From a virus, in UHGV virus genome UHGV-1350217: DNA of 64,000 bases. The stretch is one strand, 5' to 3'. Shown piece by piece: positions 13,106-63,200 of the stretch (position 1 is the first letter of the stretch; each line of letters begins with the position of its first letter). The position numbers were made by a program, and so were the translations under genes. A model generated the notes under the pieces. That model was given only the letters and a program-made list of their open reading frames with translations. It was not told the DNA's origin and did not search any database.

Positions 13106-13419
13106 TAATATCCCCTATTATAGTTATAGAACTGTTGATTTCTCATCTGCTGTTCTTGAAGCATTCTTTGATACTCCATTTGCTGTCTTTGCAATTCCAT
13201 CTGCTGTTGCATTTGCTGTTGTTGTCTTTGCATATCAGCTTGCATTCTAAGTTGGTCTGCTTGATTTTGTAGTTGTTGATATGTCATATTATGCTTGTTA
13301 TGTAAGTTTTGCCAAAACATCTGACTTTCTAACTCTTTCTGTTGGCAAGCATAATCACTACTAGCACAAGAAGCAAATAGACTACTAGCTACTAAAGCTA
13401 TTAAGATTAATCCTTTCAT
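13105..13419 (-). CDS. Gln/Met/Arg-rich lipoprotein (signal peptide plus lipobox LFASC)
   Basis: MKGLILIALVASSLFASC signal/lipobox, then low-complexity QQQMQQQMELQRQQMEYQR. Confidence 0.5.
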   Translation of the reverse strand: MKGLILIALVASSLFASCASSDYACQQKELESQMFWQNLHNKHNMTYQQLQNQADQLRMQADMQRQQQQMQQQMELQRQQMEYQRMLQEQQMRNQQFYNYNRGY

Positions 13420-37947: not shown

Positions 37948-39122
37948 TGCTTATACCTTTTACTACAAGCAATATAAAGAGTGTCCAAACTGAGACATCT
38001 CCTGATGGTAAGAATAAAGTTACGACTACTATAGTTCAATATGAGATACCAGCAGAGTTAACTAGCTTTGCTACTAATATTGAAGCTATATTAAACGTTA
38101 ATAACAATATAGAGAATGTTAAGAAAGTATCTGGTGCTATAGAAATATGCAATAAGATACTAGCTGAGATAGATACTCTAAAAGCTGTAAATGCTAATAT
38201 AGAGACTATTAAACAAGTAAATTCTATGAAAGCCTCTATAGAGACTATTAAAGATACTCTAGATGTACTAAGAACTACTAATAATAATCTAGACCTATTA
38301 AAAGCTATCTATGCAGATAAAGAGATGTATAAAACACTCTATGGCTTTAGAGATGCTTATGTTAATGATTCAGAGAATATGCAAGTATTAAAAGACATCT
38401 ATGCTAAGCTAGAGAAATTACTAGGAGTATATGACAAATTAGATGTAATATCTATAGTATATGACCATTTACTAGCTATAGAGATAGTAGCTCAAGGTAT
38501 GTCTAATATCGTTACATTTAACAGCAATATAGAGACATACAAACAGCTAGTAACATTAAAGAATGACATAGCTACGCTAGCTAGTAATATGGTCATAATC
38601 AAAGAAGCATTAGAGAAATTAAATGACTTACCTAGACTTACTAATGAACTAGAAGCTAAACTTACTACTAAAATTACTCAAGCCTTAGCAGATATAGATT
38701 CTAAAGCTAAAGAAGTATTAAAGCAAATAGCTGATAGCTTTGTTAAATGGGAACTAGAACTCACTAAGATTCAAAAAGAGATTAGTGATTTTAAACTAGA
38801 TACCAAACAAGCATTAGACAATATCTCTACTCAGATACTACCTAGTGTAAACAAGAATAAAGATGACATTGCTAAGCTAGATACTAAGCTTAATAATGAA
38901 TTATTGCTACTTAAACAAGAGATTCTTAGTATTAAAGAGAAATATACAGGTCATCAGATTGTTAATAACATTACTTCTACTGAAACTACTACAGCTACAG
39001 AAACTAAGAATGTTACAGAGACCAAAAATGTTACAGCTGATGTTAAAGCTACTGTAACAAGTACTAATAATAACACTACAACTAACAATATTACTAATCT
39101 AGGAAATGGAGAAGATATCTAA
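37947..39122 (+). CDS. Coiled-coil fibre-like protein with internal NIE..VK/IK heptad-like repeats and a Thr/Asn-rich C-terminal tail
   Basis: Repeats NIEAILNVNNNIENVKKV / NANIETIKQV / KASIETIKDT. C-terminal TETTTATETKNVTETKNVT...TNNNTTTNNITN. Confidence 0.5.
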   Translation: MLIPFTTSNIKSVQTETSPDGKNKVTTTIVQYEIPAELTSFATNIEAILNVNNNIENVKKVSGAIEICNKILAEIDTLKAVNANIETIKQVNSMKASIETIKDTLDVLRTTNNNLDLLKAIYADKEMYKTLYGFRDAYVNDSENMQVLKDIYAKLEKLLGVYDKLDVISIVYDHLLAIEIVAQGMSNIVTFNSNIETYKQLVTLKNDIATLASNMVIIKEALEKLNDLPRLTNELEAKLTTKITQALADIDSKAKEVLKQIADSFVKWELELTKIQKEISDFKLDTKQALDNISTQILPSVNKNKDDIAKLDTKLNNELLLLKQEILSIKEKYTGHQIVNNITSTETTTATETKNVTETKNVTADVKATVTSTNNNTTTNNITNLGNGEDI

Positions 39123-40866
39123 GATGAAAAAGCATATATTCTATATTACTTACACACCTAAAGTTGAATACAATGGTACTATTCCTACAGACCCTAAGCA
39201 ATTCAAAGACTTAGTAGAATCTATCTGGGATACCGATGGTAAAAAGATAGTAGAGAAGTTATTAGTTAGAAACATAGATACTAAAATAGATTTTAGAGGT
39301 ATCTATTACAATAAGAAGTTTAAGTTTATAGGTATAGTTCAATTACCTACTAAGAATGCTGATATAGAGCATTATAAAGACTATATGACACTATATACAC
39401 TTAGTGGCACTGGTGAAGGTACTAGTGCAGACCTAACTCCTCTAAATACAGCCATAGAAGCTTTGAAAAAAGAACTAGCTGATTTAAAAGCTAAAGGACT
39501 ACAAGGAAGTATTACAGAGGATAAAGTCAAAGAGTTAATCAATAATAGCGCTATTGAAACTAATAAGATTATTGAAAGTCTAAAGAAAGATAACTCTACA
39601 GAGATTACTAAGTTACTTCAAGAGATACTTAATAATAAAGAGACTATCAAAGAGACTATTAAGAATATAGCAGAGATACAAAAACTAGAAAGAGAGTTTA
39701 ATCAAAAACTTACTGAGACTAATAATAAAGTTACTACTCTAGAAAGTAAAACTACAACTTTAGAGACTAAAACTAAAGAATTAGAAACTAAAGCTAATGG
39801 AATACTATCCAAAGAGGAACTATTAAAACTACTAGGTGATGCTAAAGTAAAGAACTCTGATAATCTAGGAGGTATTCCATCTAGTGGATTCATTAGAAAC
39901 TATATGAATAATTCTTTGACTGACCAAGATTTAAACTCTATAGATTATCCAGGGTTCTTTTCACAAAAAGATAAGACTAAAGCTCTAGCAGCTAAGAATT
40001 ATCCTAAAGATAGTCTAATAGGTATTCTATTTGTAGGAAACTCTGTAAGTCCTCAGCAAGTTTACTTTGCTAATGAAACTAATGAAATATATGTTAGAAG
40101 TAAAACAGCAGGTGATTGGACAACTTGGACAAAGACTTCATTAGATTTTAACTCTATTAAACCTGAAATTGAAACTTTAATTACTGAAAAGACTAATACA
40201 GTAATTGAAAGCAAACTAGCTAATATAATAGCCAAAGACAGTGAAAAGTTAGGTGGGTTAGATAAGACTAAGTTTATTAGAGATTATATGACTGGTCAGA
40301 GTTCCATTAATAATAGAGATATTAATGATATTACTGAGCCAGGATTTTATTATATAGATTCTGACTCTTTAATACACACAGAAAATTATCCAGAGAACTT
40401 TAATATTAATGGTAATCATTCAGAATCTCTTTTAATAGTAAGCTTTATAAGCCAGCCAGCTCAATTTCTTATTACTGGTTATGGTCAAATGTACTTTCGC
40501 TATAAAGGCTTTATGGCAGGTACACTAATGTGGTATCCTTGGCAGTATATGAATAAACCTATAGACTTACCTATTCTGACATTTGATATAACTCATACTT
40601 CAGTTAATAACATTTATCCTACTATCTATAGACCTAATTTAGAGATTACTCTAACACAAGCTGGTCAGACTATGTCTTTTAATAATTCAGTATTTTCTAA
40701 TGAAGGAATTAGTGGTATGATAGTAGTTCATAACACTAAGAATATTTCTGATTTTGCAGATGAATGTATTTGGGCTACTGAAAAACCTACTGAATTAAGA
40801 GATACTGAGTATTTTACTTATATGGTATTACCAGGTAATAAGATACTATTAGGTAGAGTATATTAA
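39106..40866 (+). CDS. Tail fibre protein (coiled-coil shaft plus C-terminal globular domain)
   Basis: 586 aa. Long K/E/L-rich coiled coil (residues about 110-230), then a Y/W/N-rich C-terminal domain. Confidence 0.5.
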   Translation: MEKISKMKKHIFYITYTPKVEYNGTIPTDPKQFKDLVESIWDTDGKKIVEKLLVRNIDTKIDFRGIYYNKKFKFIGIVQLPTKNADIEHYKDYMTLYTLSGTGEGTSADLTPLNTAIEALKKELADLKAKGLQGSITEDKVKELINNSAIETNKIIESLKKDNSTEITKLLQEILNNKETIKETIKNIAEIQKLEREFNQKLTETNNKVTTLESKTTTLETKTKELETKANGILSKEELLKLLGDAKVKNSDNLGGIPSSGFIRNYMNNSLTDQDLNSIDYPGFFSQKDKTKALAAKNYPKDSLIGILFVGNSVSPQQVYFANETNEIYVRSKTAGDWTTWTKTSLDFNSIKPEIETLITEKTNTVIESKLANIIAKDSEKLGGLDKTKFIRDYMTGQSSINNRDINDITEPGFYYIDSDSLIHTENYPENFNINGNHSESLLIVSFISQPAQFLITGYGQMYFRYKGFMAGTLMWYPWQYMNKPIDLPILTFDITHTSVNNIYPTIYRPNLEITLTQAGQTMSFNNSVFSNEGISGMIVVHNTKNISDFADECIWATEKPTELRDTEYFTYMVLPGNKILLGRVY

Positions 40867-40876
40867 GGAGTCTTAA

Positions 40877-42004
40877 ATGAATACTATGCTTATGGCTACT
40901 TATATACCAAAACAGCAAGAAACTCCAGCTAGACTTATTACTGATATATATCCTTATGGTTCCTTTGACCATAAGGAACATATACAGACTAATACTAATA
41001 AAGTCATTATGAGATATATGCCTTATAGTTATACTGGAATGTTAGAAGTTAGATTACGTTTAAATGATGGTAAATATGAAGTATTTATACCTCATATTAG
41101 CGTTATTCTTGGAGAAGGTGGTACTAGCGTACCAACTACTAAAGAGAATATCAAATATACAGTTAAGATTACTAATTACAATGAGATTATAGTCTATGCT
41201 GATGGTAATCCTATAATGTTTAAAGATGCTTCTAAAGAATTACAAGTATCCTATGCTAGTCCTTATTATATTGGTAAAGTTTCTATACCTAATAATCCTA
41301 TGAATCTTGATACTTATAAGAACTATATTTCTAAATCAGAATTAGGAGGTCTTTATTATCATCAGACTGGAGGAGAGTTCTTAAAAAATGAAGCTCATAT
41401 TAAAGAAGGAACTTCAGCTACTGCTGTACTGTTCAAAGATACATATGATAAAAATCAGGCATTAAAAGGGGTTACAATAGCAGGTTGGACTAATGCTGTT
41501 AATCCATTAGTAGAATTTCCTAAAGATATTAGTACTAAGACAATTCAATATATGAAAATACCTTTAGATATGAGCAAGTTTGTTAAATTACCTAGTCAGA
41601 CTGAATATTCTTTTGTATTAGAATTAAAAGCTACTATAGGTTGGTATGATGAAAACTCTATGCTAACAGGTAATAAAGCTAATTTAACTAATACTAATGA
41701 GATTCACGGATATGCTCTAGTAATAGATAGTAAAATCTATGCTTCTATGATTCCTTATACTACTAAGTGGGAAAAGAAAGACTTTGATACTAATATAGAA
41801 CACACACAGCATTCTATGCTAGGATTAGCAATGAAAGTAGATAAAGATGGTCATAGTTTGCTTATAGTAGATGAGCATATTAGAAGTCTAGAATCCCTAG
41901 AGATAATTGCTCATAGTGATTATGATGGAGGTGGTGAACTAGATATATGTAATATTCTAGGTAATGATGAAACCCTATCAGCTTATCAAAAGGACTTAGA
42001 ATGA
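40877..42004 (+). CDS. Hypothetical tail/receptor-binding protein
   Basis: 375-aa ORF in the fibre cluster. Confidence 0.4.
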   Translation: MNTMLMATYIPKQQETPARLITDIYPYGSFDHKEHIQTNTNKVIMRYMPYSYTGMLEVRLRLNDGKYEVFIPHISVILGEGGTSVPTTKENIKYTVKITNYNEIIVYADGNPIMFKDASKELQVSYASPYYIGKVSIPNNPMNLDTYKNYISKSELGGLYYHQTGGEFLKNEAHIKEGTSATAVLFKDTYDKNQALKGVTIAGWTNAVNPLVEFPKDISTKTIQYMKIPLDMSKFVKLPSQTEYSFVLELKATIGWYDENSMLTGNKANLTNTNEIHGYALVIDSKIYASMIPYTTKWEKKDFDTNIEHTQHSMLGLAMKVDKDGHSLLIVDEHIRSLESLEIIAHSDYDGGGELDICNILGNDETLSAYQKDLE

Positions 42005-42351
42005 TACATAGACCTATTTTAAAACCTTATAATAAAAGACAATTTGAAGTAGCTGAGGATTATGAGTTTGAAGGTATGATTATCCCTAAAGGCTATCAGA
42101 CTAATGGTGCTAATATACCTAGAGTATTCTGGAGTTTATTCCCTCCTAATAGTCCAGAGTATCTTAGTGCAGCTCTAATACACGATTATATGTATGATTT
42201 AGCTATGGGTACTTATGCCAATCCTCTAGGGATTACATTTAAAGATGCAGATAAGAAGTTCTATGAGAATCTACTAGAACTCAATGTGCCTAAATGGAAA
42301 GCTTGGTTATTCTATAAAAGTATTAGACTATATTCTAAAATTAGGTGGTAA
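42001..42351 (+). CDS. DUF1353-like small phage protein
   Basis: GANIPRVFWSLFPPNSPEYLSAALIHDYMYD resembles the conserved core of the DUF1353 family (assigned from memory). Confidence 0.4.
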   Translation: MIHRPILKPYNKRQFEVAEDYEFEGMIIPKGYQTNGANIPRVFWSLFPPNSPEYLSAALIHDYMYDLAMGTYANPLGITFKDADKKFYENLLELNVPKWKAWLFYKSIRLYSKIRW

Positions 42352-42710
42352 AAATGAAGTTTATAAGTAGTAAAGTAATCATAATCTGCTTAATATTAGC
42401 AATAGTATCCTTTGGGATTAGTTTTTATAATCTAGGAACTAAAATAAAGCTATTAGAGGCTGAGAATATGCAATATAAACAAGTAATTCAAGATTATAAT
42501 ACTACTGTAGAGGATTTAAAAGTTGAGATTCTTAGAGTATCTAATATAGCTAATCATAATGCTAAAGTAGCTGCTAAATTAGATAGCTCTAAGGCTAAGC
42601 AAGTAATTAAAGTTAAAGTAAAGAAAGAGGATAATTATGAAGTATCTAACGATATTAATCTTACTCGTGAACTTGATAGGCTGTGGGAACAAACAATCAA
42701 CAGTAAGTAA
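42345..42710 (+). CDS. i-spanin (Rz-like): N-terminal TM helix plus periplasmic coiled coil
   Basis: VIIICLILAIVSFGISFY TM segment, then K/E-rich coiled coil. The o-spanin ORF overlaps its 3' end in the +1 frame. Confidence 0.6.
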   Translation: MVKMKFISSKVIIICLILAIVSFGISFYNLGTKIKLLEAENMQYKQVIQDYNTTVEDLKVEILRVSNIANHNAKVAAKLDSSKAKQVIKVKVKKEDNYEVSNDINLTRELDRLWEQTINSK

Positions 42711-42909
42711 ACCTATAGTGGTAACTTGTACTCCTATTAGTCTCAAAGAATTTTATCCTACAAAGATTTCTAAGCCATCATTTGATAGTAATCAAGCTAT
42801 CCTCGATAGTTATGGAGAGTTATTAAAAAGCTATAGTATTAATACTAAGAAACTTCTTAATCTAATAGAGTTAGTTAAGAATCAAAATAAGCAATGCAAA
42901 GGTAACTAG
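42637..42909 (+). CDS. o-spanin (Rz1-like) outer-membrane lipoprotein, partly embedded in the i-spanin gene
   Basis: MKYLTILILLVNLIGC lipobox, Pro-rich mature region, C-terminal Cys. Confidence 0.6.
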   Translation: MKYLTILILLVNLIGCGNKQSTVSKPIVVTCTPISLKEFYPTKISKPSFDSNQAILDSYGELLKSYSINTKKLLNLIELVKNQNKQCKGN

Positions 42910-43257
42910 ATGGACGAGACTACTGTAGCTATACCTAATGCAGACCCTAGTAGTCTCTTAACATCTATAGTATCTAATGCTAAGACTTTTGAGACTCTAG
43001 GTATTACTGGAGTACTGTTTATTCTAGTTATAGCTCTAGGATTTATGCTAGTATTTAAATTACGTAATGATACTAAGCTTACTAATATTGCTACACAGCT
43101 AAGTGCTTTAGCTACAGCTACTAGTAATGCTAATGAGATGAATAAAGAACTTAATTCATCTAATATGAAGTTTATAGAGCATTATTTAGAAACTATCAAG
43201 CAAGCATTAGATAAGTTAGAAGGATATATCTTGGATATAAAAGAGAGGCATAGCTAA
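42910..43257 (+). CDS. Single-TM protein (holin candidate)
   Basis: ITGVLFILVIALGFMLVF TM helix; 115 aa; sits between the two spanin-like pairs. Confidence 0.35.
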   Translation: MDETTVAIPNADPSSLLTSIVSNAKTFETLGITGVLFILVIALGFMLVFKLRNDTKLTNIATQLSALATATSNANEMNKELNSSNMKFIEHYLETIKQALDKLEGYILDIKERHS

Positions 43258-43586
43258 TGGAAATTGCTAAGATATTACAAATAGTCAGTGTTACTATAAT
43301 AGTAGGTCTAAGTACATATGCTTATTACCTATCATCTAAGCTAGACCAAACTAAGTATGAACTAGCTAATAAGATAATAGAGATGAATCTATGCAAAGCA
43401 GATAAGCAAACAGCTGAAGCTAAGATAGAGTTACAAAATACTCAAATTAAAGCTTTAGCTATTAAGCCCTTAGATGAAAAAGAACTAAAGAAACATATTA
43501 AAGTACTAGAGAAAGTAGAAGTTCCTAAAGAAAATACTGATTCTAAGAAAGTAGAATACTATGAAAATCTCTTTGATAATATGTAG
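43257..43586 (+). CDS. Second i-spanin-like protein (N-terminal TM plus coiled coil)
   Basis: ILQIVSVTIIVGLSTYAYYL TM segment, then a coiled coil. The downstream lipoprotein ORF overlaps its 3' end. Confidence 0.5.
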   Translation: MEIAKILQIVSVTIIVGLSTYAYYLSSKLDQTKYELANKIIEMNLCKADKQTAEAKIELQNTQIKALAIKPLDEKELKKHIKVLEKVEVPKENTDSKKVEYYENLFDNM

Positions 43587-43785
43587 TGCTATATTGCTTA
43601 TAGGTTGTTCTAAAGAGCCTATAGTAAGGACTGAATATAAAACAGTAAATGTTCCAGTTAAATGTACTGAAGCTATGCCTAGTAAACCTAGATATATCAA
43701 AGGCAATTTAAAGAGTGCTAGAGATTTAATGGCATATTATAAGAAATGTGAATTAATATTAATAAATTGTATAAAGGATAACTAA
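43561..43785 (+). CDS. Second o-spanin-like outer-membrane lipoprotein
   Basis: MKISLIICSAILLIGC lipobox; small mature domain with three Cys. Confidence 0.5.
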   Translation: MKISLIICSAILLIGCSKEPIVRTEYKTVNVPVKCTEAMPSKPRYIKGNLKSARDLMAYYKKCELILINCIKDN

Positions 43786-44201
43786 TGCTAATGAGTATAA
43801 CTAGATTTAAAGAGATAGATGATAGAACTATAGGTAAGTTTACAATTACAGAGGATGGAGAGTTATTTCTTAGTGGATATACTTGTGAACCAGCAGGGCC
43901 TGATACTATTCTAAGTGGTAAAGATAAGAGAATACCACAAGGAGAATATACTATTACTTGGCATAACAGCCCTAGATTTAATAGACTACTTCCATTAATA
44001 TTTAACTCTCAAGTACCTGCTACTAGATGTATATTAATACATTCAGGCAATACTGGAAAGAATACTGAAGGATGTATTCTAGTAGGTAAGACTTATGATA
44101 ATAATGGAGTATGGAGTTCTAGAGAGACTCTAAATGCTTTAATAGAGATATTCCAAAAAGCTAAAGATATTAAACTAGTAATAACTAATCAAATAGGATA
44201 G
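43785..44201 (+). CDS. Putative cell-wall hydrolase/endolysin candidate (YkuD-like His...Cys motif)
   Basis: ILIHSGNTGKNTEGCILVG resembles the L,D-transpeptidase-fold H-x(n)-[ST]-x-G-C-[ILV] catalytic motif. Sits directly after the spanins, where an endolysin is expected. Confidence 0.35.
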   Translation: MLMSITRFKEIDDRTIGKFTITEDGELFLSGYTCEPAGPDTILSGKDKRIPQGEYTITWHNSPRFNRLLPLIFNSQVPATRCILIHSGNTGKNTEGCILVGKTYDNNGVWSSRETLNALIEIFQKAKDIKLVITNQIG

Positions 44202-44205
44202 ACAG

Positions 44206-46269
44206 ATGATAGCAAATGAGGAAAAAGCTCTTAGAATATTCAAAGCGGATTTCATCTCGGCTCAGAATGCTAAGAAAGAGATAGAAGCTAAAATGGAGGA
44301 ATGGAGAGATAGATATAATGGTAAGCCATATGGAAATGAGACTAAAGATGGCTCTAGGTCTAAGATAGTATCTAGAGATATTAAAAAGCAATCTGAATGG
44401 CAACACGCTGAACTATTAGACCCATTTGTATCTACTCCTGATATTATTCAAGCTAATCCTAATAGTTATGAGGATGCAGAAATAGCACCTAGAATAGGTC
44501 TATTGCTTAACACTCAATTTTGCTTGCAATTTAATAGATATAACTTTATGGCTAAAGCTCTTAAAGTTTTAGATGTAGAAGGAACTTGTGTAGTTAGATT
44601 AGGCTGGGAATATGAGGAAAAAGAAGTAGTAGATTTAGTCTATGATGAAATCCCTAATCCTCAATTACAGCAATTAAAATTAATTATTCAGCAAGCTCTA
44701 GAGCAAGGAGACCAACAAACTGCTATAGAGTTACAACAACAAGGACAGCAATTACCTCCTACTATAAAGCAACCTAGACAAGTTAAAAGAGTAAAGCCTA
44801 TTAAAAATCATCCTACAGCTACAGTATGCAGAAATGATGATATATTCATAGACCCTACTTGTATGGATGACTTCGAAAATTGTCAATTTATAATTCATAG
44901 ATATGAGACAGATTTAAGTCATCTAAAGAAAGCTGGTATCTATAAAAACCTAGAGGAAATTAAAATCAAACTAGATAGCTCTAATATAGATGGAGTATAT
45001 GATGATTACAAAAGACCTGATAGATATCTATTTAACTTTGAAGATAAAACTAGACGTAAACTACTAGTCTATGAATATTGGGGATTCTATGACATTAATA
45101 ATGATGGTATTAATGAATCTATAGTATGTACTTGGGTAGGTGATACTATCATTAGATTTGAGGAGAATCCATATCCTGATAAAAAGCTTCCATTTGTAGT
45201 TACTCCATTTACTCCTATTCCTTTTCAGATGTATGGTGAATCTAATGCTGAATTACTAGATGATATACAAAAAGTTAAGACTGCTATTTATAGAGGATTT
45301 GTAGATAATATGGCATTAAGTAATAATGCTCAAAAAGGTATTAGACAAGGAGTACTAGACCAAGCTAATAGAATTAAGTTCTTAGCAGGTAAGAACTTTA
45401 CCTTTGCAGCTAATGGTAATCCAGCTGTAGATTTCTATGAAGGACATTTCAATGAATTACCTGGAAGTATCTTTAATATGCTTCAATTACTATCTAATGA
45501 AGCTGAGAGTATCACTGGAGTTAAGTCTTTTAATCAAGGATTAAATAGCAATACTCTAGGGGGTACAGCTACAGGTATACAAGGAGTACTTACTAGTGCT
45601 AGTACCCGTAGATTAAATATAGTCAGAAACATCTCTGAGAACTTAGTAAAGCCTATACTACGTAAATGGCTAGCATATGATGCAGAGTTTCTAGATGAGG
45701 AAACTCAGATTAGAATAACTAATGATGAGTTTCTATGGCTTAAAAGAGACGACTTAGGAGCTAATATAGACATAGTACTATCTATCTCTACAGCTGATGA
45801 TAATCAATCTAAAGCTAATAGCCTTACTATGATGTTACAGACTACAGCTCAATCATTACCGTTTGAAATTACTAAGCCTCTATTAATACAAATGGCTCAG
45901 TTATATAGAATGCCAGATTTAGCTAAAGCAATAGCAGATTATACTCCTCAACCACCTCAACCAACTCCTGAGGAACAGCAAATGGCTCAACTACAACTAG
46001 AGGGTATGCAAGCAGAGAATGCTCTAACTATGTCTAAAGTAGATAAGAATCAAGTAGATAATGAATACAAGCAAGCTAGAACAGAGAGTGAAAAAGCTAA
46101 AGCAGCTAATATAGCTTCTAAGACAGATAAGCAAGACTTAGATTATCTACACGATTACTATCAAACTAAGGCTAAAAATGAAGCAGATAAGCAAGCTAGA
46201 CAGCAGAAGTTTGATATTGATAAAGAAACTTTAAAACTATTAGAAAACTCTAATAGGAAGTATTTATAA
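44206..46269 (+). CDS. Portal protein (T7/podovirus-type head-tail connector)
   Basis: 687 aa. C-terminal Q/M-rich PEEQQMAQLQLEGMQAEN resembles the T7 gp8 tail EEQKQQKMAQQSMQMG. Upstream of scaffold and capsid. Confidence 0.7.
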   Translation: MIANEEKALRIFKADFISAQNAKKEIEAKMEEWRDRYNGKPYGNETKDGSRSKIVSRDIKKQSEWQHAELLDPFVSTPDIIQANPNSYEDAEIAPRIGLLLNTQFCLQFNRYNFMAKALKVLDVEGTCVVRLGWEYEEKEVVDLVYDEIPNPQLQQLKLIIQQALEQGDQQTAIELQQQGQQLPPTIKQPRQVKRVKPIKNHPTATVCRNDDIFIDPTCMDDFENCQFIIHRYETDLSHLKKAGIYKNLEEIKIKLDSSNIDGVYDDYKRPDRYLFNFEDKTRRKLLVYEYWGFYDINNDGINESIVCTWVGDTIIRFEENPYPDKKLPFVVTPFTPIPFQMYGESNAELLDDIQKVKTAIYRGFVDNMALSNNAQKGIRQGVLDQANRIKFLAGKNFTFAANGNPAVDFYEGHFNELPGSIFNMLQLLSNEAESITGVKSFNQGLNSNTLGGTATGIQGVLTSASTRRLNIVRNISENLVKPILRKWLAYDAEFLDEETQIRITNDEFLWLKRDDLGANIDIVLSISTADDNQSKANSLTMMLQTTAQSLPFEITKPLLIQMAQLYRMPDLAKAIADYTPQPPQPTPEEQQMAQLQLEGMQAENALTMSKVDKNQVDNEYKQARTESEKAKAANIASKTDKQDLDYLHDYYQTKAKNEADKQARQQKFDIDKETLKLLENSNRKYL

Positions 46270-46317
46270 GCTTAAAGCTTATGTTATACTTAAATAACTT
46301 TATACAAGGAGAAATAT

Positions 46318-46614
46318 ATGAATGATGAACTCTTAGATGAGTTGGAAAATGCTGATTTAGTTACAGGAGATAACTCTTATAACGTAAAGCTAGCTAAGGC
46401 ATTATCAAGACTAGAGAATAACAAAGACTTTCAGTTAGTTATTTTAGATGGCTTTATGCAAGAGAAAGTAGTCTCTATGGCTATGCAATTATCTATTCCA
46501 GGAGCTGATAAAGGTACTATTATGGAGTATCTAATAGCAGCTAATAAACTAAGAGACTATTTCATCGCTATTAAAAATCTAGCTGGTGAAATTGACAACG
46601 AAACTAAGGATTAA
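46318..46614 (+). CDS. Hypothetical small protein
   Basis: 98 aa, between portal and scaffold. Confidence 0.45.
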   Translation: MNDELLDELENADLVTGDNSYNVKLAKALSRLENNKDFQLVILDGFMQEKVVSMAMQLSIPGADKGTIMEYLIAANKLRDYFIAIKNLAGEIDNETKD

Positions 46615-46616
46615 TT

Positions 46617-47714
46617 ATGGCAGAGGATATTAAGAAGGAACTAACCGACGAAGATGTATATAATATGTCTGAGGAGGAGTTCAACAAGTTTCTACAAGAT
46701 GATTTAGATAAGTTAAATACCACTGAAGTAGCTGATGAACCTACAGAACAACCTACAGAGGAAGTTACTAAAACTCCTACTGAGGAAGTAGCTAAAACTG
46801 ATGAAAATCAAGAACCTGTAGAACAACCAAAAGAGGAAACACCTGTAGAAACTCCTACAGATAATGCTTCTAATGACGAATCTACAAGTAACGATAATAA
46901 AGCAGAGGAAACTCCTGAGACTTATACCATTAGGGCTAATAAGCAAGACTATACACTTACACTAGATGAAATCAAAAATCTAGCAAGTAAAGGTATAGAC
47001 TATACTAAAAAGACTCAGCAGTTTAAAGAGTATCTACCTGTTTTAGATGCACTGAAACAGCAAGGAATTAAACCTGAATCTATTAATGTCTTAATAGACG
47101 TTGCTAAAGGCAATAAAGAAGCTATTAAGAGCATTATCAAAGCTAATAATATAGACCCTATGGATTTAGATGATTCTATGTCTGTTGCAGATGATGATGG
47201 TAAGGAATCAAAACCTTATGCTCCACAAGAGTATAGACCTAATTATGCTAAGCAGGAACTAGATGAAGTTGTTGCTAGACTCTCACAAGAGCCTGAATAT
47301 TATAAACAGACTATTTCTGTAGTTAGTAGTTTAGACGATGTCTCTAAAGATTTTCTGCAAAATAATCCTGCTGCTATTGAAGGTTTGCAGAATGATATTA
47401 AATCTGGAGAATATGCTAAGACTATGACTTATGCTAATACACTAGCAGTTAGAGATAATTTCTCTAAGCCTGTTCTAGAGTATTACATTAATGCAGCTAG
47501 AGAATTAGCTATGAATAATATTCAAAGAGCAGCTAGTACTAAAGACCAAGATATTGCTAGAGAACGACAAAGAATAGAGAATAGAAATAAAGTAGTAGCT
47601 TCTAATCCAGTAGCTACACCTCCTGCTAAAGACCTAGTAGGTAAAGATGCAGAGGATGCTATATTTTCAATGTCTACTGAGGAGTTCCAGAAGTATCTTG
47701 AAAGTATTAAATAA
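46617..47714 (+). CDS. Scaffolding protein candidate
   Basis: Acidic 365-aa protein with PTEE/PVE repeats (EQPTEEVTKTPTEEVAKTDENQEPVEQPKEETPVETPTD). Located between portal and capsid as in T7-like and N4-like phages. Confidence 0.55.
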   Translation: MAEDIKKELTDEDVYNMSEEEFNKFLQDDLDKLNTTEVADEPTEQPTEEVTKTPTEEVAKTDENQEPVEQPKEETPVETPTDNASNDESTSNDNKAEETPETYTIRANKQDYTLTLDEIKNLASKGIDYTKKTQQFKEYLPVLDALKQQGIKPESINVLIDVAKGNKEAIKSIIKANNIDPMDLDDSMSVADDDGKESKPYAPQEYRPNYAKQELDEVVARLSQEPEYYKQTISVVSSLDDVSKDFLQNNPAAIEGLQNDIKSGEYAKTMTYANTLAVRDNFSKPVLEYYINAARELAMNNIQRAASTKDQDIARERQRIENRNKVVASNPVATPPAKDLVGKDAEDAIFSMSTEEFQKYLESIK

Positions 47715-54339: not shown

Positions 54340-57189
54340 ATGGCAGATTTAAATATAGGAGGAACTAGTGCTTTTCTAGGGCCTGCTGTTAATACTCAAA
54401 TAAATCAGACTGATGTCAAAGGAACAGATTTTACTAGGACTATGCTACAGGCATTACAAGGTGCAGCTATAGCAGATGAAAATACTAGAAAGAATGACTT
54501 AGCTTCTGCTGAATTATTAGCAGCTAACACTGAAGCTAGTGAAAAAGCATATCAGTATGGACAAAATCTAGCAGCAGACCAATTAGTGAAAGCTATAGGA
54601 TTAGAGAATGCTGCATTGAATCCTTTTATTGGAACATATGCTAGAGCTAAACTAGATGATACTACTAAAAAGTTTCAAGAGGTTAGAAATACTAATAGAG
54701 ATTTCAATGAAATAGCTGATTATGCTAAAACATATGGACATACTCCAGCTATAGATGCTATTCTTATTAATCGAGAAAATGCTAAAAGAGGTCTAGCAGA
54801 AAGAGATATAGAATTAGCTAGACTAAGAGGTGATTCTAATGGTAATCCTACAACAGCTACTAGTACTAGTCTTACAGTCAAAGGAGGTTTACCTGATAAT
54901 TTAAGAGTTCCTTCTTATATTAATTCAACTGATGGTAGTATTGACTTTAATAAAATTAATTCAATAATGTCAGGTAATAACTCAGCTAATCGGCAAATGA
55001 ATAGTGCCCTAGCTCCTACAGGTAATGATACTGCTACACAGAATGCTTCAGCTAGCCCTAGACTTAATGGTATTAGTGCAGCAGGTAGAGCAGCTGATGG
55101 ATTAAGTAGAATACAAACTACTACTTCTACAGGTAAGTGTGCTACTTCAGTAAGAGAGAATCTAGAAAGAGCTGGATATAGACTTCCTACGGGTAAAGAT
55201 AGAACTAGTGCTTATATGTATGCTGATAATGGTCTATTAGAGGATATGGGATTTCAACGTATAGATAATGCTTATTCACAGAATCCTCTTAAAGGAGATA
55301 TAGTAGTTTTTGGTAAAACTGATAAACATCCTGATGGACATATAGCTATGTTTGATGGTAATAACTGGGTTAGTGATTTTAGACAACGAAGCATTAATCC
55401 ATATATAGATAAAAAGTCAGCAGGACAGATGTCATATTTCAGAGACCCTAGAGCAATAGATGATAATCCTGATTTTGCTAAGTTTCAACAACAAGCTATG
55501 AATCCTATCAATCAATTTAAACAAGCTCTAGGATTAAATCCAGAGCCTACAGCAAGTGAGAGGGCTACAGATAGTACTAACATACCTTCTTACTCTCAGA
55601 ATGGTTTAGACGCTAAGGAAATGGCTTCTAAAGCACTATCTACAAATCAGTCTAAAGCTGTTAGTTTTAATAATTCTTTAGGAGTAGATACAGAAAAGAA
55701 TCCTGAAACTGGTTTACCTATGAATGATGTAGCTGGTAATCAACTAAGTAATGCTATTCAACAGACTAGTAAACTTAAAGGACAGAGTCTTTTTATTTCT
55801 GAGGATGATAAATCTCAAGATAATAAAATTATGGTAAATCTAGGAGATAAGATAGGTGTGTTTGATAATACTCCTGATGGACTAAATCAAGCTGAGCAAA
55901 TGAAAGCTAATGTAGGTATAGGTAGACCATCTATGATAGAAGCTATTACTACTAAAGCTCAAATGTCCTATGGTAAAGAACCTATGCAGACTTATGAGGA
56001 TTATGTTAATAAAAATATAGATAATAATCCTGCATTATATGGAAGCAATATACACGTATCTAAAGCTATTACAGATAAAGGTAATCTAGATAGTATAGCT
56101 AGTATAACTGGCTTACCTATAGTTCAATATGATGATAATGGAAACCCTATCGAAGATACTATAGCTTATCCTCCTAATATGTCTAATAGACTAGCTAATA
56201 TAGGACATACTGATACAGCTAGTGTAGAAAGAGCTCAGAAAGCTGCAGATGACTTAAAAGAGTTCTATCAACAATCAGGACAAGACTATACTATAGGAAA
56301 AAATCATCCAAATATTAGAATAAACAATGATGGTAGCTTAAAAGAAGGAAATCCTAATAATATGACTAAAGAGGAAAGAAAATATAATAAGATGGTTCAA
56401 ACTGAGGATTTTCTAACTGACCCTGCTATATCTGGTGCTAATAAGATAATTCAAACTACTAAAGATATGCCGATTATAAAAGATAAAGGGGATAATACTG
56501 AGAAATATACCTCTTTAGTTCAAAAGGACTTAGCTGAAGGCAATAATGAAAAGATAATTCTAGCTGGTATTACTCTGCATACTCTAGGTATAGAGGATGC
56601 TGATGGTATGAATGCTGATGCTATGGATATGCTATATAGAGTAATGACTGAAGATAAAACACCTACTGAAGCTCTAGCTTCTGGTAAGCTAGGTATTTTT
56701 AAAGATGCTAAAGCTCAAGAGTTAGTTAAGCTATTACCTAAAGCTTATAAAGAAATAGCAGCTTATGCAGCTGATAGTAGTGGTTTTCTATTTAGTAAAA
56801 AAGGCTCTAGAAGTGAAGGTATGATACCTATATTCTTAGACGATAAAGGTAATTTTAGAGTTAATAGATTTAAGATGGATACACCCGAGAATAGAAAGTT
56901 TGCTGAGGATAATGGAGTACCTGTAGCTAATTCATCTAAGCATTTGGCTTTAGTTCCTAATCAACTAGGTTATAAATTAGAGAGTTTTCTTAGAGGAATA
57001 TCTGACAAATATGCTAAAGAAGCTTTTGCTAAATCTACTCATCAAAGAAAATATATTTCAGACGAAACAAGAGATAGAATGAAACAAGATGATGCTCAAT
57101 TCTTACTAGATAATAATGGAGATACTTACGATTGGTTAGCTACAACAGGAATGAGTAAAGGGGAATACTTAGAGAATATGCAACGCTAG
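54340..57189 (+). CDS. Virion-associated peptidoglycan hydrolase with a CHAP/NlpC-P60-like cysteine peptidase domain
   Basis: GKCATSVRENLERAGYRLP ... GDIVVFGKTDKHPDGHIAMFDGNNWVSDF: catalytic Cys and His arrangement typical of CHAP domains (about nt 55100-55400). 949 aa. Confidence 0.6.
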   Translation: MADLNIGGTSAFLGPAVNTQINQTDVKGTDFTRTMLQALQGAAIADENTRKNDLASAELLAANTEASEKAYQYGQNLAADQLVKAIGLENAALNPFIGTYARAKLDDTTKKFQEVRNTNRDFNEIADYAKTYGHTPAIDAILINRENAKRGLAERDIELARLRGDSNGNPTTATSTSLTVKGGLPDNLRVPSYINSTDGSIDFNKINSIMSGNNSANRQMNSALAPTGNDTATQNASASPRLNGISAAGRAADGLSRIQTTTSTGKCATSVRENLERAGYRLPTGKDRTSAYMYADNGLLEDMGFQRIDNAYSQNPLKGDIVVFGKTDKHPDGHIAMFDGNNWVSDFRQRSINPYIDKKSAGQMSYFRDPRAIDDNPDFAKFQQQAMNPINQFKQALGLNPEPTASERATDSTNIPSYSQNGLDAKEMASKALSTNQSKAVSFNNSLGVDTEKNPETGLPMNDVAGNQLSNAIQQTSKLKGQSLFISEDDKSQDNKIMVNLGDKIGVFDNTPDGLNQAEQMKANVGIGRPSMIEAITTKAQMSYGKEPMQTYEDYVNKNIDNNPALYGSNIHVSKAITDKGNLDSIASITGLPIVQYDDNGNPIEDTIAYPPNMSNRLANIGHTDTASVERAQKAADDLKEFYQQSGQDYTIGKNHPNIRINNDGSLKEGNPNNMTKEERKYNKMVQTEDFLTDPAISGANKIIQTTKDMPIIKDKGDNTEKYTSLVQKDLAEGNNEKIILAGITLHTLGIEDADGMNADAMDMLYRVMTEDKTPTEALASGKLGIFKDAKAQELVKLLPKAYKEIAAYAADSSGFLFSKKGSRSEGMIPIFLDDKGNFRVNRFKMDTPENRKFAEDNGVPVANSSKHLALVPNQLGYKLESFLRGISDKYAKEAFAKSTHQRKYISDETRDRMKQDDAQFLLDNNGDTYDWLATTGMSKGEYLENMQR

Positions 57190-57260
57190 TTGTGTATTAA
57201 ATATATTCTTATTCTTTCACTATAATACTGCTAAACTTAAACTAATTTAAGGATAGCAGT

Positions 57261-60200
57261 ATGTATAATGAAAATGATGAAAATCAACAAGAATATAATA
57301 AGCCTACTTCTAAAGATAAATCTAGCAGTATCTCTTTGATGAATACTCTCTCTGATGCTTTTAAGCAAAATGGAGGGGTACCTCAAGAGCTAGAGAACTC
57401 TACAGTTAGAAACTTCTTTAATACTAATTATGCTCCTATATTCAAGCCAGCTAATCAAGTTAAAGCTGAAAGAGCTACAGAAGTTGTTAAAGATATATTA
57501 CAACGTCAAGGATTTCCTTCTACTCCAGAGGATGATGCAGCAGCTAGAATAGCAGCAGATACCACATATGCTCCTCAATATCAACAACTAGAACTTAATG
57601 AGCAAAGATTAGATTTAATTTCTCAAAAGAATAAGCAAGATTTAGACAATGCAGAGCATATGAATAAACTAAAGCTACTAGATGCTCTAAGTCCTCAAGC
57701 ATTAGCTGATATAGGTTATGGAAGTAAAGGTAGCTACTCTATGTCTCCAGAGGAAAGAGCAGCATATGTTAGAAAAATGACAGCTGACCCTTATAAACAA
57801 GCTATGCAACTAGCTGAAATAAAAGCTACAGATGATAGACTTAAAGCAGCTAGAGGTCTAACTATTATCAATGACTTAAATGATAGGTTTAAAATAGAAC
57901 AACAAAGGGAAGCTCTCAACAGAGATAAAGAGAATCTTACTACTGATTTAGCTTCATTAGCTTCATATAATAACTATATGAAAGAGATTAATCCTGCTTT
58001 CACTTCTACTACCTTTGAGACAGGTAATCCTCTAGAAAAAAATCCTGATTATTCTATTACTGCTAATATTGCAGACCAATGGGGAGAGTTCTATAGAGAT
58101 ACTTTAGGTGTAGGACAACTAGCTAGTGAAGGTGCTAGTGATTTAGCTAAGCTAGCTGTTAGAAAAGCTAAGAACTGGAATAAATCTGTATCTGATATAG
58201 CTACAGAAGTTTTACAAGAGGATTATGAGCTAAATAAACAGAGACAAGCAGGTAAATCTACAGGTCATCCTATAGATGATTTTCTAGCTGGAGCTATTAG
58301 AGGTTCAGGTAAAGCAGCTAAAGACAGAAATGCAGTTAATAGATTTACTATTGATTTAATGAAAGCTGATTATGATGCTTCTGATGGAGCATTATCTACT
58401 GTTAAAAATATAGGAGGAGATTTACTAGGAGCTTCAGGACAATTTATAGCTGGTTCAACTCCTGAAGTACTTAGTGCTTTGGTTCCTGGAGGACTAGTAA
58501 ATAAAGCTACAGAGAAAGCTGCTGCTAAATATGGTGAAAAAGTAGCTATGGAAGCAGCTGGTAAAGATTTAATTAATGCTACTAGAGCTACTACAGAAGC
58601 TCTTGATAAACTTAAATCTACAGCTCCTAAAGCTATGACTGACAAAGTAATTGCTGAAGTTCCTAAGAGAAATGAACTCTTTAAAGCTATGCAAGATAAG
58701 TTTAATCAAGACTTTAGAGCTATTAAAAAGTCTACAGATTTAACTAGAAAAGAGAAACTAGAGAAACTTCAAGCTTTAAGACGTCAAAGAAATGTAGAAC
58801 TTACAAGTACAGAGAATAATAATCTAATCAAAGCCTATGCTAAAGCTACAGATGCTGAGAAAGCAAGAATGCTATCAGCTTATAAAGAGTCTTTAAAAGA
58901 GAATGGCTTTAAAGAAGCTAATGCAGCAGCATTTAGAAGTGAATATGCAGCTAATAAAGCTTTACATACTAATGCTATATCTAAAGTAGAGGAAGCTAAT
59001 AAAAAACTAGCTGATACTATGGAGAAATATCATATAGACCCTACTACTAGAACTATCTCTGATAAAGGTAAAGAACTATTAGGTAAAGAGTTTGCAGCAG
59101 AGTTTCAAGCTAATAGTAAAAGATATAGTCCATTAGCTAATGCCTTTAGAACTCTTACCCCTACTGCTGCAGTAGTCGCTGAAAGAAATGCTAGACAAGC
59201 TATGGCTAATAGATTAGGTATAGATGAAAGAGACTTAGTTCAAGTAGTAGATAGTGGAGACTTTATCTCTAATATGCCACTAGCATATGTCTATTCAGCT
59301 CTAAATACACTAGAGGCTACTAACCTACTAGAAGGAGCTTTTAAAGGAGCAGGACTTAAAGATATATTTAGTACTACTAAGAAGTTCCTTACAGGTGTAG
59401 ACGACACTACTATAGCTGCTACTAAGCAAGCTACTAAAGAAGCAGCTTCTAGGACTATGAAAGAAAGAGCATCTGAACTAGCTACTAGACTCAAAGATAA
59501 GCCATTAAAAGAAGTTAGAGATATAACTACTAAAATGTTTGGTCTAGCTTCTAAGACTTTAAAAAGTACTGCTAAAGTAGCAGGTAAAAGAGGTCTATAT
59601 GGTTTTGCTAATGAAGGAACTGCTGAGTTCTTACAAGAGTATTCAGAGCAATTACAGCAAAATGGCTTTAATCTACAAGAGATATTAAATCCTCAAACAC
59701 TAGAACAAGCTAAAGAAGCAGGATTAATAGGAGGTCTAACTGGAGGAACTACAGGTACTCTAAGTACTGGAAGTCATCTAGTTAGAAATGTCTATGATAA
59801 AGGTATTAAACCTCTAGCTACTTCTCTTAAAGATAAATGGCTAGAGCATAAAGAAGCTAAAGCAGATGAAAAGACTGAAGCTACTAGAACTACAACTAAC
59901 TATGAAGCTTCACATAACAATGATGGTTCTGTTATAGCTAATACTACTAGTCCAGCTAAAGTAATTGAGGATAGTCTAAATACTAATCTAAATAATAATA
60001 CTATTAAGAAAATAGCTTCAGAAGCTCAAATAAGACAAGCTAAGAAAAACCAAGATTTCTTTGATAATGATAAACCTAAGACTAAAGCAGATATAGATAG
60101 ACATACTGATGACTTAATGCAAGAGTATAAATATGCTCCAGAGAAAAGACCAGAAGTAAGAGATGCTGTAGTAAATACTGCTGTATCTAGAAATGCTGTA

Positions 60201-63200
60201 GATTATACTGCTGATGAATTGAAAGATTTAGGAGTTAATGATGAAACTATAGCTAGATATGGTAATATCAATCTACAATTACAAGATACTCTTACTGATA
60301 ATTATAAAGTTTCAGATGTAACTAAAGATTGGAATATACCTACTGAGAAACTTACAGAGATACAAGACTTTATACCTAGTCTAGATAAATTAGATAAAGA
60401 TACTTTCAAAGACCTTACTAATGAACAGAAAGCCTTAGTATTAGATGTATTAAATAATAAAGCTGTAAAAGTTAAACCTGAGAATATCACAGGTAGAGTA
60501 TATACTCCATCATTCTCTACTGATGAGAATCCTATAAAACTTAATGTAGAGCATAAACTTACAGATACTGGAGATTTAGACTTATCAGACTTTGCTGAAA
60601 GAGCTAAGAACTTAAATAAAGCCTTTAATTATAATGCTGATACAAATAAGAAAATTACTAGTACTGATGCCTATTATGGATTAAATGAGTTAAGCTTCTT
60701 ACTTACTAATGCTAATAGTAATAATATAGCTACTAAAGAGGAGGATATCACTTCTGAAAGTAATAACTCACTTCTTAAGTCTTTACATAATATAGGTACA
60801 GCTATAGGTAAAGGAGAAGTAGATAAGCTAGAAGGTAATGATAGACAAGTCTTAGAAGGTTTAAAACAGTTAATTAAAGATGGAGCTATCAAGAATAAAG
60901 AGAATCAAGTAGTTAGTCTAGGTAGTGCAGAGAAACTACTAGATGAAGTAGATAAATATGCTAAAGTAGAACTAGAAAAAACTACTCCTGTTACTGATGA
61001 ATTGTCTACTAATCCTAAGTTTAAAGACCAAGGTTCTCAAGCTATTAATAAAGTCTTTCATTCACAGAATGACTCTTTAGATACAAAAACTTCTGAGTTT
61101 GTTATGACTGCTCTAGGTGTAGCTGATATAGCTCAAGCTAGTAGTGTTAATATCAAAGTTATGAGAAAGAATCAAGCTATTAATATGGAGGATGTATCCT
61201 CTGATATAGCTTCTACTGCTGCTAGAATAGTCAATAAGTTAAATGCTGTTATGCACGATATTATGCTTACTAGAGCTGAGAAAGCTAAGGCTTATAGATA
61301 TCTAATGAGTCAGTTAAAAGAACTTACTGTTAGAGTTAATTCTAAAGTTTCAGCTATTAATTCAGTTCGTAATAAAACAGGTCTATTAGATGACTTAAGA
61401 AAAGACCTAAAAAGAAAGCTAGAAAGCCAATCAGAAAATAAGACTGATGAGCAAATATCCAAAAGTGTAGAGGATATAATTAATGACCAATATATTCTTG
61501 GTACTGAAGGTTTCTCAGCTGTAGTAATAGAGATACCATATAAAAATCCTAAAGGAACTAAATTACTTAATGATCTTAGTCCTGCGGAGTTAAGTAAAAA
61601 TCTAGATTTAAAATTAGTACCTAAAAAGTCTTTCTCATTTAATAAAAGAGAACAAGTTACTACTGAGGATATAAATGCTTATAATAGCAAGTATAGTAAT
61701 GGAGAACAGTATTATCTAATAGCTAAAATAGATAAGAATAATGGAACTATTAGCTTTGACCAATCTGAGGATAACTCTTTAGCTTTACTACAGAATGCTA
61801 TTATTAATGACTCTAATCTATTATCTAAGGCTTTAGAGCTATTCACTGGAGTTAGGGAAGCTTTTAGTAATACTACTCTAGGTACTTTACTAGACCCTAA
61901 AGCTATAGATGAAGGGTATTTATTTAATCTACTAAGACAATATGATACAGCTTCTATTAAGACAGATGAACAGATAGAAGTTTTAAAAAATAACTATAAG
62001 AAATTACTAGAAAGTGATACAGCTACTCAAGAGGAAAAAGATAATGCTCTAAAAGATTTGTCTTTATATGTTGTACCTATTAAAGATAATCAAGGTAATA
62101 TAGTAAAAGATCAATATAGACGAATTACTAAAGCTGATGTTAATAAGAACATTCAAGCCTTTATGAATAACTCTATTCAAAGTATGGCTTTATCTCAAAA
62201 GAGAATGTTAGCATTAAGGACTATATTAAAGAATCCTGTTCCAGCAGTAGCTGATAGATTTAAATCTCTTATTCCTGAATTAGCTGATATGCAAGTACTA
62301 GATAGCCCTTCTATTATAGTTAAATTAAGAGATATCTATGAATGGTATAAAAGAGACTTTGAAATAGCTAAAGCTCAAATGGCTTATTTACTATCAGACA
62401 ATCCTGATGAGATAGCTAGACTAATGCTAGCTATGAAATATATAGAGCAAGAGACTGTAAGAAAAGAACTTGGTAGATTAAGCCAAAGTGAGTTTAATAA
62501 AGTTCGTATGCAGGGATACTCTCAATGGTCTGATAAGTTTAAAGTAATGCTTAGAAACTTCTATGGCTTTAATAAGAGCATAGAATATACAGAACAGCAA
62601 TTTAATTCTAAACTAGAGGAAGTAAATAAAACAAGAGAAGCTAGAGATTTGCCTAAAATAACTCTAGAGGAAATAGAGACTATGACTAAGCCTCTATTAA
62701 ATGATTTCTCCCCAGTTAGCATTATAAGCAATATGCAATCTCTTATGTCTATAGCAGCTTCTAAAGAGTTAGCTAAAGGATTTAAACTAAGTAATAACTC
62801 ACTTATGGATTTACTAGATGACTCTAAGTTAGACCTAAACAAATCAGATACTCTAGACTTTGATAGAAATCTCATAGGCTATGCTTATGATTTTAACCCT
62901 CTAGAAGCTAAAGGCTTTAAGTATTTTACTAATGGAAAGAATACTTCTATAGATTCTCTTAAACTAGGAGAATTGACATATAGTAATTTTAAAGATAGAT
63001 TGAATGCTTCCCTTATTAATAATGTTAAAAACTTTGAAAAGATGCCTAAAGGTCTATTTAATGATGTCTTTATATTCAATAAGGATGGCTCTATAAATAG
63101 TGTTAAAGAACCTTATACTAGAGCTATGTTTATGAGTCTAATGGAAACTATGACTAAAGGTGTTAATCCATCTCCTATTACTCTAGGTTCAGCTGAGACA

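Follow-up and report, generated by a model that had tools for sequence, protein, structure and literature searches.

Two unrelated candidate spanin pairs in the putative lysis cassette of an N4-like phage

We analysed a 64,000-nucleotide (nt) stretch of the virus genome UHGV-1350217, called the window below, which comes from an N4-like podophage of about 31% G+C. At 42001-44201, seven plus-strand genes are packed together with gaps of 0-4 nt or with overlaps, and among them are two pairs in which the gene of a transmembrane (TM), helical protein is followed by that of a small lipoprotein, the arrangement of two-component spanins (inner-membrane i-spanin and outer-membrane o-spanin). We consider, with a probability of about 0.7, that the region is a lysis cassette with two complete, parallel and functional two-component spanin systems, that these belong to unrelated families joined by module fusion, and that both are kept by selection. 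All the sequences used are metagenomic.

The two pairs, designated A and B, are i-spanin A (42354-42710, +; 118 amino acids) with o-spanin A (42637-42909, +; precursor of 90 and mature protein of 75 amino acids), and i-spanin B (43257-43586, +; 109 amino acids) with o-spanin B (43561-43785, +; precursor of 74 and mature protein of 59 amino acids). A gene for a one-TM protein, here named mid (42910-43257, +; 115 amino acids), separates them. These five open reading frames (ORFs), i.e. both pairs and the middle gene, had been described in a first-pass annotation made from the letters of the window, and all five were confirmed as described, each lipoprotein ORF overlapping its partner in the +1 frame. 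Two details of that description had to be changed. The first ORF of pair A does exist, but the GTG at 42345 listed as its start is not the likely one; the ATG at 42354 is preferred because AGGTGG lies 5 nt upstream of it and because homologues begin with MKYISSK or MKNLSSK. In addition, the lipoprotein gene had been taken as embedded in its partner, whereas the lipoprotein genes of both pairs only overlap their partners, by 74 nt (pair A) and 26 nt (pair B), and so fall into the overlapped class.

In both pairs the anatomy is that of spanins: a TM segment and helices in one protein, a lipobox without Asp at position +2 in the other, and the +1 overlap between their genes. Lipoboxes and TM segments were detected by simple heuristics, TM segments from hydropathy. 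Scanned on both strands with a strict lipobox criterion, the 64 kb yielded only three ORFs, namely o-spanin A, o-spanin B and one at 13105-13419 on the minus strand, while the mean number expected by chance from codon-block shuffles was 0.1. The paired arrangement is therefore real, and chance ORFs were ruled out as an explanation for it. Both pairs also adjoin a candidate endolysin, the DUF5675 protein, and a one-TM holin candidate without a holin family match, the mid protein.

The location of the seven genes points in the same direction. They lie in the late operon with tail-fibre genes on one side and the portal gene on the other; in Escherichia phage N4 the same slot, between the tail or appendage genes and the portal gene, holds the lysis genes, so that the window genes occupy the position of a lysis cassette. 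The N4 slot contains gp63, gp62 (holin), gp61 (endolysin) and gp60 (Rz-like spanin) and adjoins the portal gene gp59. With N4 the window has in common the giant virion RNA polymerase and a portal of the SU10/N4 type, and its major head protein matches as well. It differs in that N4 has a single Rz-like spanin locus with an annotated holin and endolysin, whereas in the window the endolysin candidate is the DUF5675 protein, and other modules, with identifiable relatives mainly in Campylobacter and Helicobacter phages and prophages, have taken the place of the entire cassette. When 62 N4-like loci were scanned, two TM-then-lipoprotein pairs upstream of the portal gene were found only in the window and its four close relatives. 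The statement of the first-pass annotation that one spanin pair per phage is the norm thus holds for N4 and for the other N4-like loci.

Among the pair A proteins, i-spanin A has an N-terminal TM segment at residues 4-22 behind an N-terminus of the form MK...K. In the AlphaFold2 model, residues 2-82 form a helix with a predicted local distance difference test score (pLDDT) above 90, residues 83-102 are disordered and residues 103-116 form a second helix, and the shape so predicted is that expected of an i-spanin. The protein matches two PHROG families of Rz-like spanins, 739 and 214, at E-values of about 1e-5. The o-spanin A gene is preceded by the ribosome-binding site AGAGGA, and its product has the lipobox LIGC with Cys16 as the putative lipidated residue, Gly at +2, and two further cysteines, Cys31 and Cys87.

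Family A is rare. A full HMMER search with i-spanin A over 1.84 billion cluster representatives gave 2 matches, a word-indexed protein search with it gave one near-identical match, and tblastn against phage records gave nothing significant. Orthologues of i-spanin A nevertheless occur at 51-53% identity in phages of about 100 kb, at 31% in L007, an N4-like relative with 62% portal identity, and at 33% in L129, a myovirus fragment; those of o-spanin A are 42-49% identical and keep the lipobox and the C-terminal cysteine. Family A is the sole pair in L007 and the only pair present on the short 2.7-kb contig of L129. On this last contig the o-spanin-A-like ORF (1221-1520) reads LTGY where its relatives have LTGC or LIGC, the cysteine to be lipidated being replaced by tyrosine; the change could reflect an error of sequencing, decay of the gene or a variant that is not lipidated. 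Every family-A lineage (the window, L007, L129 and the phages of about 100 kb, L085/L088) has a mid homologue directly after pair A.

Pair B belongs to a different setting. The N-terminal TM segment of i-spanin B was placed at about residues 6-25 or, in a wider reading, about 1-25, and the remainder is predicted to be helical in a model of low confidence. The protein falls into PHROG 1955 (E = 1.3e-5), whose function is not annotated; its C-terminal half aligns with endolysin-adjacent i-spanins of Helicobacter-type prophages, with Y102 and F106 invariant, and it keeps the C-terminal Y..LF motif of the i-spanins that are partners of family-B lipoproteins. The cysteine-rich o-spanin B has the lipobox LIGC with Cys16 and Ser at +2. 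It belongs to PHROG 2291, also of unannotated function (E = 4e-19), and matches the Rz-like spanin family PHROG 456 at E = 4e-5; residues C16, V29, P32, C35, P40, P43, Y59, E64 and C70 are invariant in its family.

In many phages and prophages family B is the sole TM/lipoprotein pair, and it stands there beside a lysozyme or DUF5675 gene. The order in a Helicobacter apodemus prophage is lysozyme, a 109-amino-acid TM/helical protein and a family-B lipoprotein, and in a Helicobacter pullorum prophage it is DUF5675, a 114-amino-acid TM/helical protein and a family-B lipoprotein. About 10 prophage-like contigs from IMG/VR have, in this order, DUF1353 (in several of them), i-spanin, o-spanin, a holin-like protein with one or two predicted TM segments, sometimes a small cysteine-rich protein, and DUF5675. 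An alignment of o-spanin B searched against a genome collection hit two Helicobacter genomes only. Judging solely from the relatives of the cassette genes, the host of the phage is probably of Campylobacter/Helicobacter type, a member of the Campylobacterota.

The first-pass annotation had regarded pair B as a duplicated, diverged copy of pair A. This interpretation was not borne out: no recognisable similarity was found between the pairs, and each family has its own relatives elsewhere. BLASTP between the pairs gave nothing (E-values of 1.5 and 0.65), and profile-profile comparison (hhalign) of the two i-spanin families gave a probability of 4.8%. The o-spanin profiles did align with a probability of 85% when signal peptides were included; this value is due to the signal peptide and lipobox, since it fell to 1.6% for the mature parts. 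A recent tandem duplication was rejected on these comparisons, and at the level of sequence the two pairs are different, unrelated families and not recognisable duplicates.

Selection on the cassette was assessed in two groups of genomes. The window and its four close relatives are about 95% identical in DNA over the cassette, and all genes are intact. The ratios of nonsynonymous to synonymous polymorphism (pN/pS) in these five genomes are 0.15 for i-spanin A, 0.09 for o-spanin A, 0.10 for mid, 0.07 for o-spanin B and 0.07 for the DUF5675 gene; i-spanin B has the lowest value of the cassette, 0.02 over its whole length, compared with 0.015 for the portal gene. Where two genes overlap, both frames are under constraint, and pS in the i-spanin genes is slightly reduced as a result; the conclusion is unchanged. 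In the second group, four genomes of the phages of about 100 kb, both pairs are again intact, and pairs A and B, mid and an additional gene described below (TM94) have values of 0.05-0.15. Low pN/pS together with intact copies in two lineages indicates that both pairs encode proteins that matter to the phage.

It was through the homologues of mid that this second lineage was reached. Its contigs, 98-112 kb long, are of a different kind of phage and have a collar-type fibre gene, an SNF2 helicase gene and a DnaB gene beside the cassette. The gene order is DUF1353, i-spanin B, o-spanin B, i-spanin A, o-spanin A, mid, TM94 and DUF5675. Protein identity to the window is 51-57% for DUF1353 and 55-64% for DUF5675; in pair B it is lower, 30% for the i-spanin and 39-41% for the o-spanin. 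With the exception of pair B, these identities exceed the 23-48% found between the cassettes of the window and L007. The recurrence of the genes in unrelated phages shows that the cassette is a module shared between them, and the two lineages that share it probably have the same host group. A metagenome scan with the mid alignment found only these two double-pair lineages.

TM94 is a one-TM protein of 92-94 amino acids encoded between mid and DUF5675 (L085, 5348-5632; L088, 5378-5656; L106, 5193-5510) and has no lipoprotein partner. It is 44-48% identical to the N-terminal half of the window i-spanin B, whose C-terminal half aligns with full-length i-spanins of family B, and looks like a truncated paralogue that has lost the lipoprotein-binding end and the partner. 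Its ratio of nonsynonymous to synonymous substitution rates (dN/dS) is about 0.10, and it may regulate the holin.

The mid protein has an acidic N-terminus, a single TM segment (residues 30-48) and, C-terminally, a helical part. It is the best conserved of the module (62-71% identity to its counterparts in the phages of about 100 kb), and the TM segment is invariant among homologues. It matched no family in Pfam, PHROG or NCBIfam, holin families included. From the charge distribution and the positive-inside rule its topology would be N-out/C-in, opposite to that of an i-spanin. By elimination it is the best holin candidate, in agreement with the first-pass annotation, which had placed a holin-like single-TM gene between the pairs.

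The last gene of the operon (43785-44201, +; 138 amino acids) encodes a soluble protein of the Pfam family DUF5675 (E = 1.2e-29) with a YkuD/C82-like His...Cys motif, IHSGNTGKNTEGCILVG; a 2026 preprint has classed DUF5675 as C82-like and as a candidate lysin. In Helicobacter prophages it takes the slot that lysozyme has beside family-B spanins (L122, 3486-3902, compared with L083, 2091-2555). A tblastn search with it hit 127 phage records, 64 of them Campylobacter phages, and the best matches were Helicobacter pullorum prophages. These features suggest that the DUF5675 protein is probably the endolysin of the cassette and likely represents an unrecognised endolysin class; as it lacks a signal sequence, a holin would be needed.

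The first gene of the module (42001-42351, +; 116 amino acids) encodes a DUF1353 protein (Pfam, E = 5.5e-18) with a weak match to Phospholip_A2_4 and a His-Asp motif, IHDYMYD. TtaP, the DUF1353 protein of the typhoid toxin islet, was shown by experiment to be a phospholipase A2 (PLA2) with a His/Asp dyad (PMC11525133). The two proteins belong to the same Pfam family and the His-Asp motif is kept in that of the window; the ttaP gene adjoins a phage-type muramidase gene. They differ in that PLA2 activity was demonstrated for TtaP, while for the phage DUF1353 proteins a part in lysis is argued from gene position alone. The gene heads the cassette in L085, L088, L095, L097, L100 and L106, whereas in L084/L110, and in a prophage of Helicobacter ganmani, its neighbours are a holin-like gene on one side and the endolysin gene on the other; PHROGs labels the family 'tail assembly chaperone'. 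On account of its repeated position at the cassette head, it is possibly an accessory membrane-attacking lysis factor, a lysis-associated phospholipase.

If the cassette works in the manner of Rz/Rz1-type spanins, on which the following scheme is modelled, each i-spanin would be anchored in the inner membrane upon late expression, and its cognate lipoprotein would be lipidated and sorted to the outer membrane. The two would bind through their C-termini across the periplasm, with the peptidoglycan mesh holding the complexes apart. Release of the DUF5675 protein by the holin would then lead to degradation of the wall and to the collapse of both complexes, fusing the inner and outer membranes. 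As to origin, the cassette would most likely have arisen by the joining of two modules, one consisting of pair A and mid and the other of DUF1353, pair B and DUF5675, and not by tandem duplication.

Several points weigh against this interpretation of the pairs. The similarities of their proteins to named spanin families are weak: o-spanin A reaches the Rz-like spanin family PHROG 456 only at a non-significant E = 0.014, and the best that i-spanin B achieves against spanin-labelled families is PHROG 4349 at E = 0.087, also not significant. For o-spanin B, the match to Pfam PF23793 (LysC, the Rz1-like protein of P2) scores 17.0 bits (E = 0.0055) against a gathering threshold of 27 bits, and membership of that family was accordingly rejected. 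The AlphaFold2 model of i-spanin B is all-helical with a mean pLDDT of 44, i.e. of low confidence, and the charge distribution of the protein does not fix its predicted orientation. We infer lipidation, outer-membrane sorting, binding between i- and o-spanins and membrane fusion by analogy, and the sorting rules are those of Escherichia coli and may not be those of the host. Selection shows that both pairs are useful, not that their use is lysis. Finally, TM94 is kept by selection with no lipoprotein, so proteins of this type can act without an o-spanin.

Other readings of the same data were therefore weighed, all of which we judge unlikely. The first-pass annotation had proposed superinfection exclusion or DNA entry or exit as the purpose of a second pair, a proposal that received no support: the four pair proteins have no significant defence, exclusion or non-lysis lipoprotein match in PADLOC, NCBIfam or Pfam, and their genes are packed in a late operon that ends with the endolysin candidate. 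Homology of pair B to a known non-lysis lipoprotein system, which that annotation had named as evidence that would speak against spanins, was looked for in these databases and no such match was found. A form of the idea can nevertheless be built on pair A, if only one pair is a working spanin (pair B would be the likelier, given its location in relatives) and the other has a different envelope role, such as exclusion by receptor masking or control of lysis timing. Phage T5 has a lipoprotein, Llp, that excludes superinfecting phages by masking the receptor, and its gene adjoins the receptor-binding gene; pair A directly follows the tail-fibre genes in the window, L007 and L129. This adjacency is not conserved in the phages of about 100 kb, where pair B intervenes between pair A and the genes on the fibre side. 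The rarity of family A and the lack of a significant spanin-family match for o-spanin A suit a separate role, yet pair A has the full spanin anatomy, its i-spanin does match PHROG Rz-like spanins, it is the only pair in L007, the packing of the late lysis operon leaves no room for separate regulation, and no defence family is matched. We consider this reading improbable.

A slightly smaller chance is given to the possibility that i-spanin B is mainly a TM94-type holin partner or antiholin with an acquired spanin C-terminus, in which case pair B would couple hole formation to outer-membrane disruption. Its N-terminal half is indeed closer to TM94 (44-48% identity) than to the full-length family-B i-spanins that occur alongside TM94 (29-33%), TM94 is under selection without a lipoprotein partner, and in L007 the slot between mid and DUF5675 is filled by an 89-amino-acid one-TM protein with a basic tail and no lipoprotein. 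TM94 aligns, however, with the N-terminal coil of family-B i-spanins and may be a mere truncated paralogue, while i-spanin B keeps the Y..LF motif, is followed by a conserved family-B lipoprotein and is constrained over its whole length more strongly than any other gene of the cassette. The least probable of the alternatives is that the arrangement is a transient, redundant by-product of lysis-module recombination, with one pair being lost, and thus an intermediate of spanin replacement of the kind proposed by Kongari et al. (2018; PMC6139136), who described duplication followed by deletion as a route between spanin architectures. The cassette is a mosaic common to unrelated phages with differing gene order, TM94 resembles a decayed third i-spanin, and the nearest N4-like relative, L007, has one pair only. 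Both pairs are nonetheless intact and under strong purifying selection in two lineages with cassettes diverged to 30-71% protein identity, which is unlike a decaying copy.

Two functional spanin systems thus account best for the data as we see them. A stronger version, in which the two would be non-redundant and would form, together with the DUF1353 protein, a multi-part apparatus for outer-membrane disruption required by an envelope of the Campylobacter/Helicobacter type, is speculative, although we rate it a little above the alternatives just discussed. Each complex would then have a distinct job, for example at different envelope sites or steps, and hole formation would be coupled to membrane fusion through an additional action of i-spanin-B/TM94-type proteins as holin regulators.

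In their general features the pairs resemble the overlapped two-component spanins (Summer et al. 2007; Kongari et al. 2018), with a predicted type-II inner-membrane helical protein, a small predicted outer-membrane lipoprotein whose +1 start lies inside the 3' end of the preceding gene, and a place in a putative lysis cassette. Rz/Rz1 of lambda, the paradigm of two-component spanins, is of the embedded class instead. The window departs from known systems in having two pairs per cassette, in similarities to named families that are weak or absent, and in its short i-spanins (109-118 amino acids compared with 153 for Rz), of which i-spanin A lacks a periplasmic cysteine. Helicobacter and related IMG/VR prophages (L083, L122, L095-L112) share with it the family-B i- and o-spanins, DUF5675 or lysozyme, and often DUF1353 upstream, but they contain only one spanin pair and a multi-TM holin. 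In the window, pair A is present in addition and the one-TM mid stands in place of that holin.

Double spanin pairs are unusual but have a precedent. The announcement of Stenotrophomonas phage Marzo (PMC8928761; GenBank MZ326868) reports two spanin pairs, of which one overlaps and the other is embedded; this phage is a T4-like myophage of 159 kb, and its announcement contains no analysis of conservation or selection. Its annotation places the embedded pair at 46.3-46.8 kb with no second annotated spanin pair beside it within the first 50 kb, so that the Marzo pairs are apparently dispersed. In the searchable literature library we found no report of two pairs other than Marzo and no work on the reason for having both. 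Features not reported before are the occurrence of two unrelated pairs within a single operon, the conservation of both under selection in two lineages, and the presence beside them of an endolysin candidate of YkuD-like type and a gene of the PLA2 family. Since a phage is generally taken to have a single spanin system, the cassette is a natural system for asking whether spanins are redundant, how specific the pairing of i- and o-spanins is, and whether Campylobacter/Helicobacter hosts need more than one device for opening the outer membrane. Provisional functions follow for several families, PHROG 2291 and 1955 being probably spanins, DUF5675 probably an endolysin and DUF1353 possibly a lysis-associated phospholipase, and these assignments could help in annotating the phages of Campylobacter, a group with practical relevance to biocontrol.

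The assignment of the window to the N4-like phages is based on its portal, for which both Pfam SU10_portal (E = 1e-138) and N4-like phage portals are matches, and on the terminase, appendage, 'tape measure' and major head protein genes, which are in N4 order. At 57246-64000 (+) an ORF of more than 2251 codons is still open where the window stops, and the ORF at 458-3928 (+) matches virion RNA polymerases in their C-terminal part; the giant polymerase gene is thus apparently split across the window ends, from which it follows that the source contig is circularly permuted. Megablast of 40000-47000 against phage records gave no match, the distantly N4-like Alteromonas phages were uninformative for the cassette, and a scan for promoters and terminators gave counts at or below shuffle expectation and so has no word on regulation.

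A few observations were made outside the cassette. The two tail-fibre-like genes upstream of it (39106-42004, +) encode the most variable proteins among the close genomes, with pN of 0.08 and 0.036 and differing lengths, as expected for determinants of host range. The third lipobox ORF (13105-13419, -; 104 amino acids, lipobox FASC, Cys18) lies in the early/middle region on the opposite strand, has a weak match to PADLOC 'Effector 2TM' (E = 2e-4) and could be a superinfection-exclusion lipoprotein. Adjoining the virion RNA polymerase gene, 54340-57189 (+) encodes a protein of 949 amino acids without a Pfam family, residues 213-453 of which match PHROG 38472 ('endolysin', E = 8e-15). As a large virion-type protein encoded beside the virion RNA polymerase it was rejected as the lysis endolysin, and it probably degrades the wall at entry as a component of the virion.

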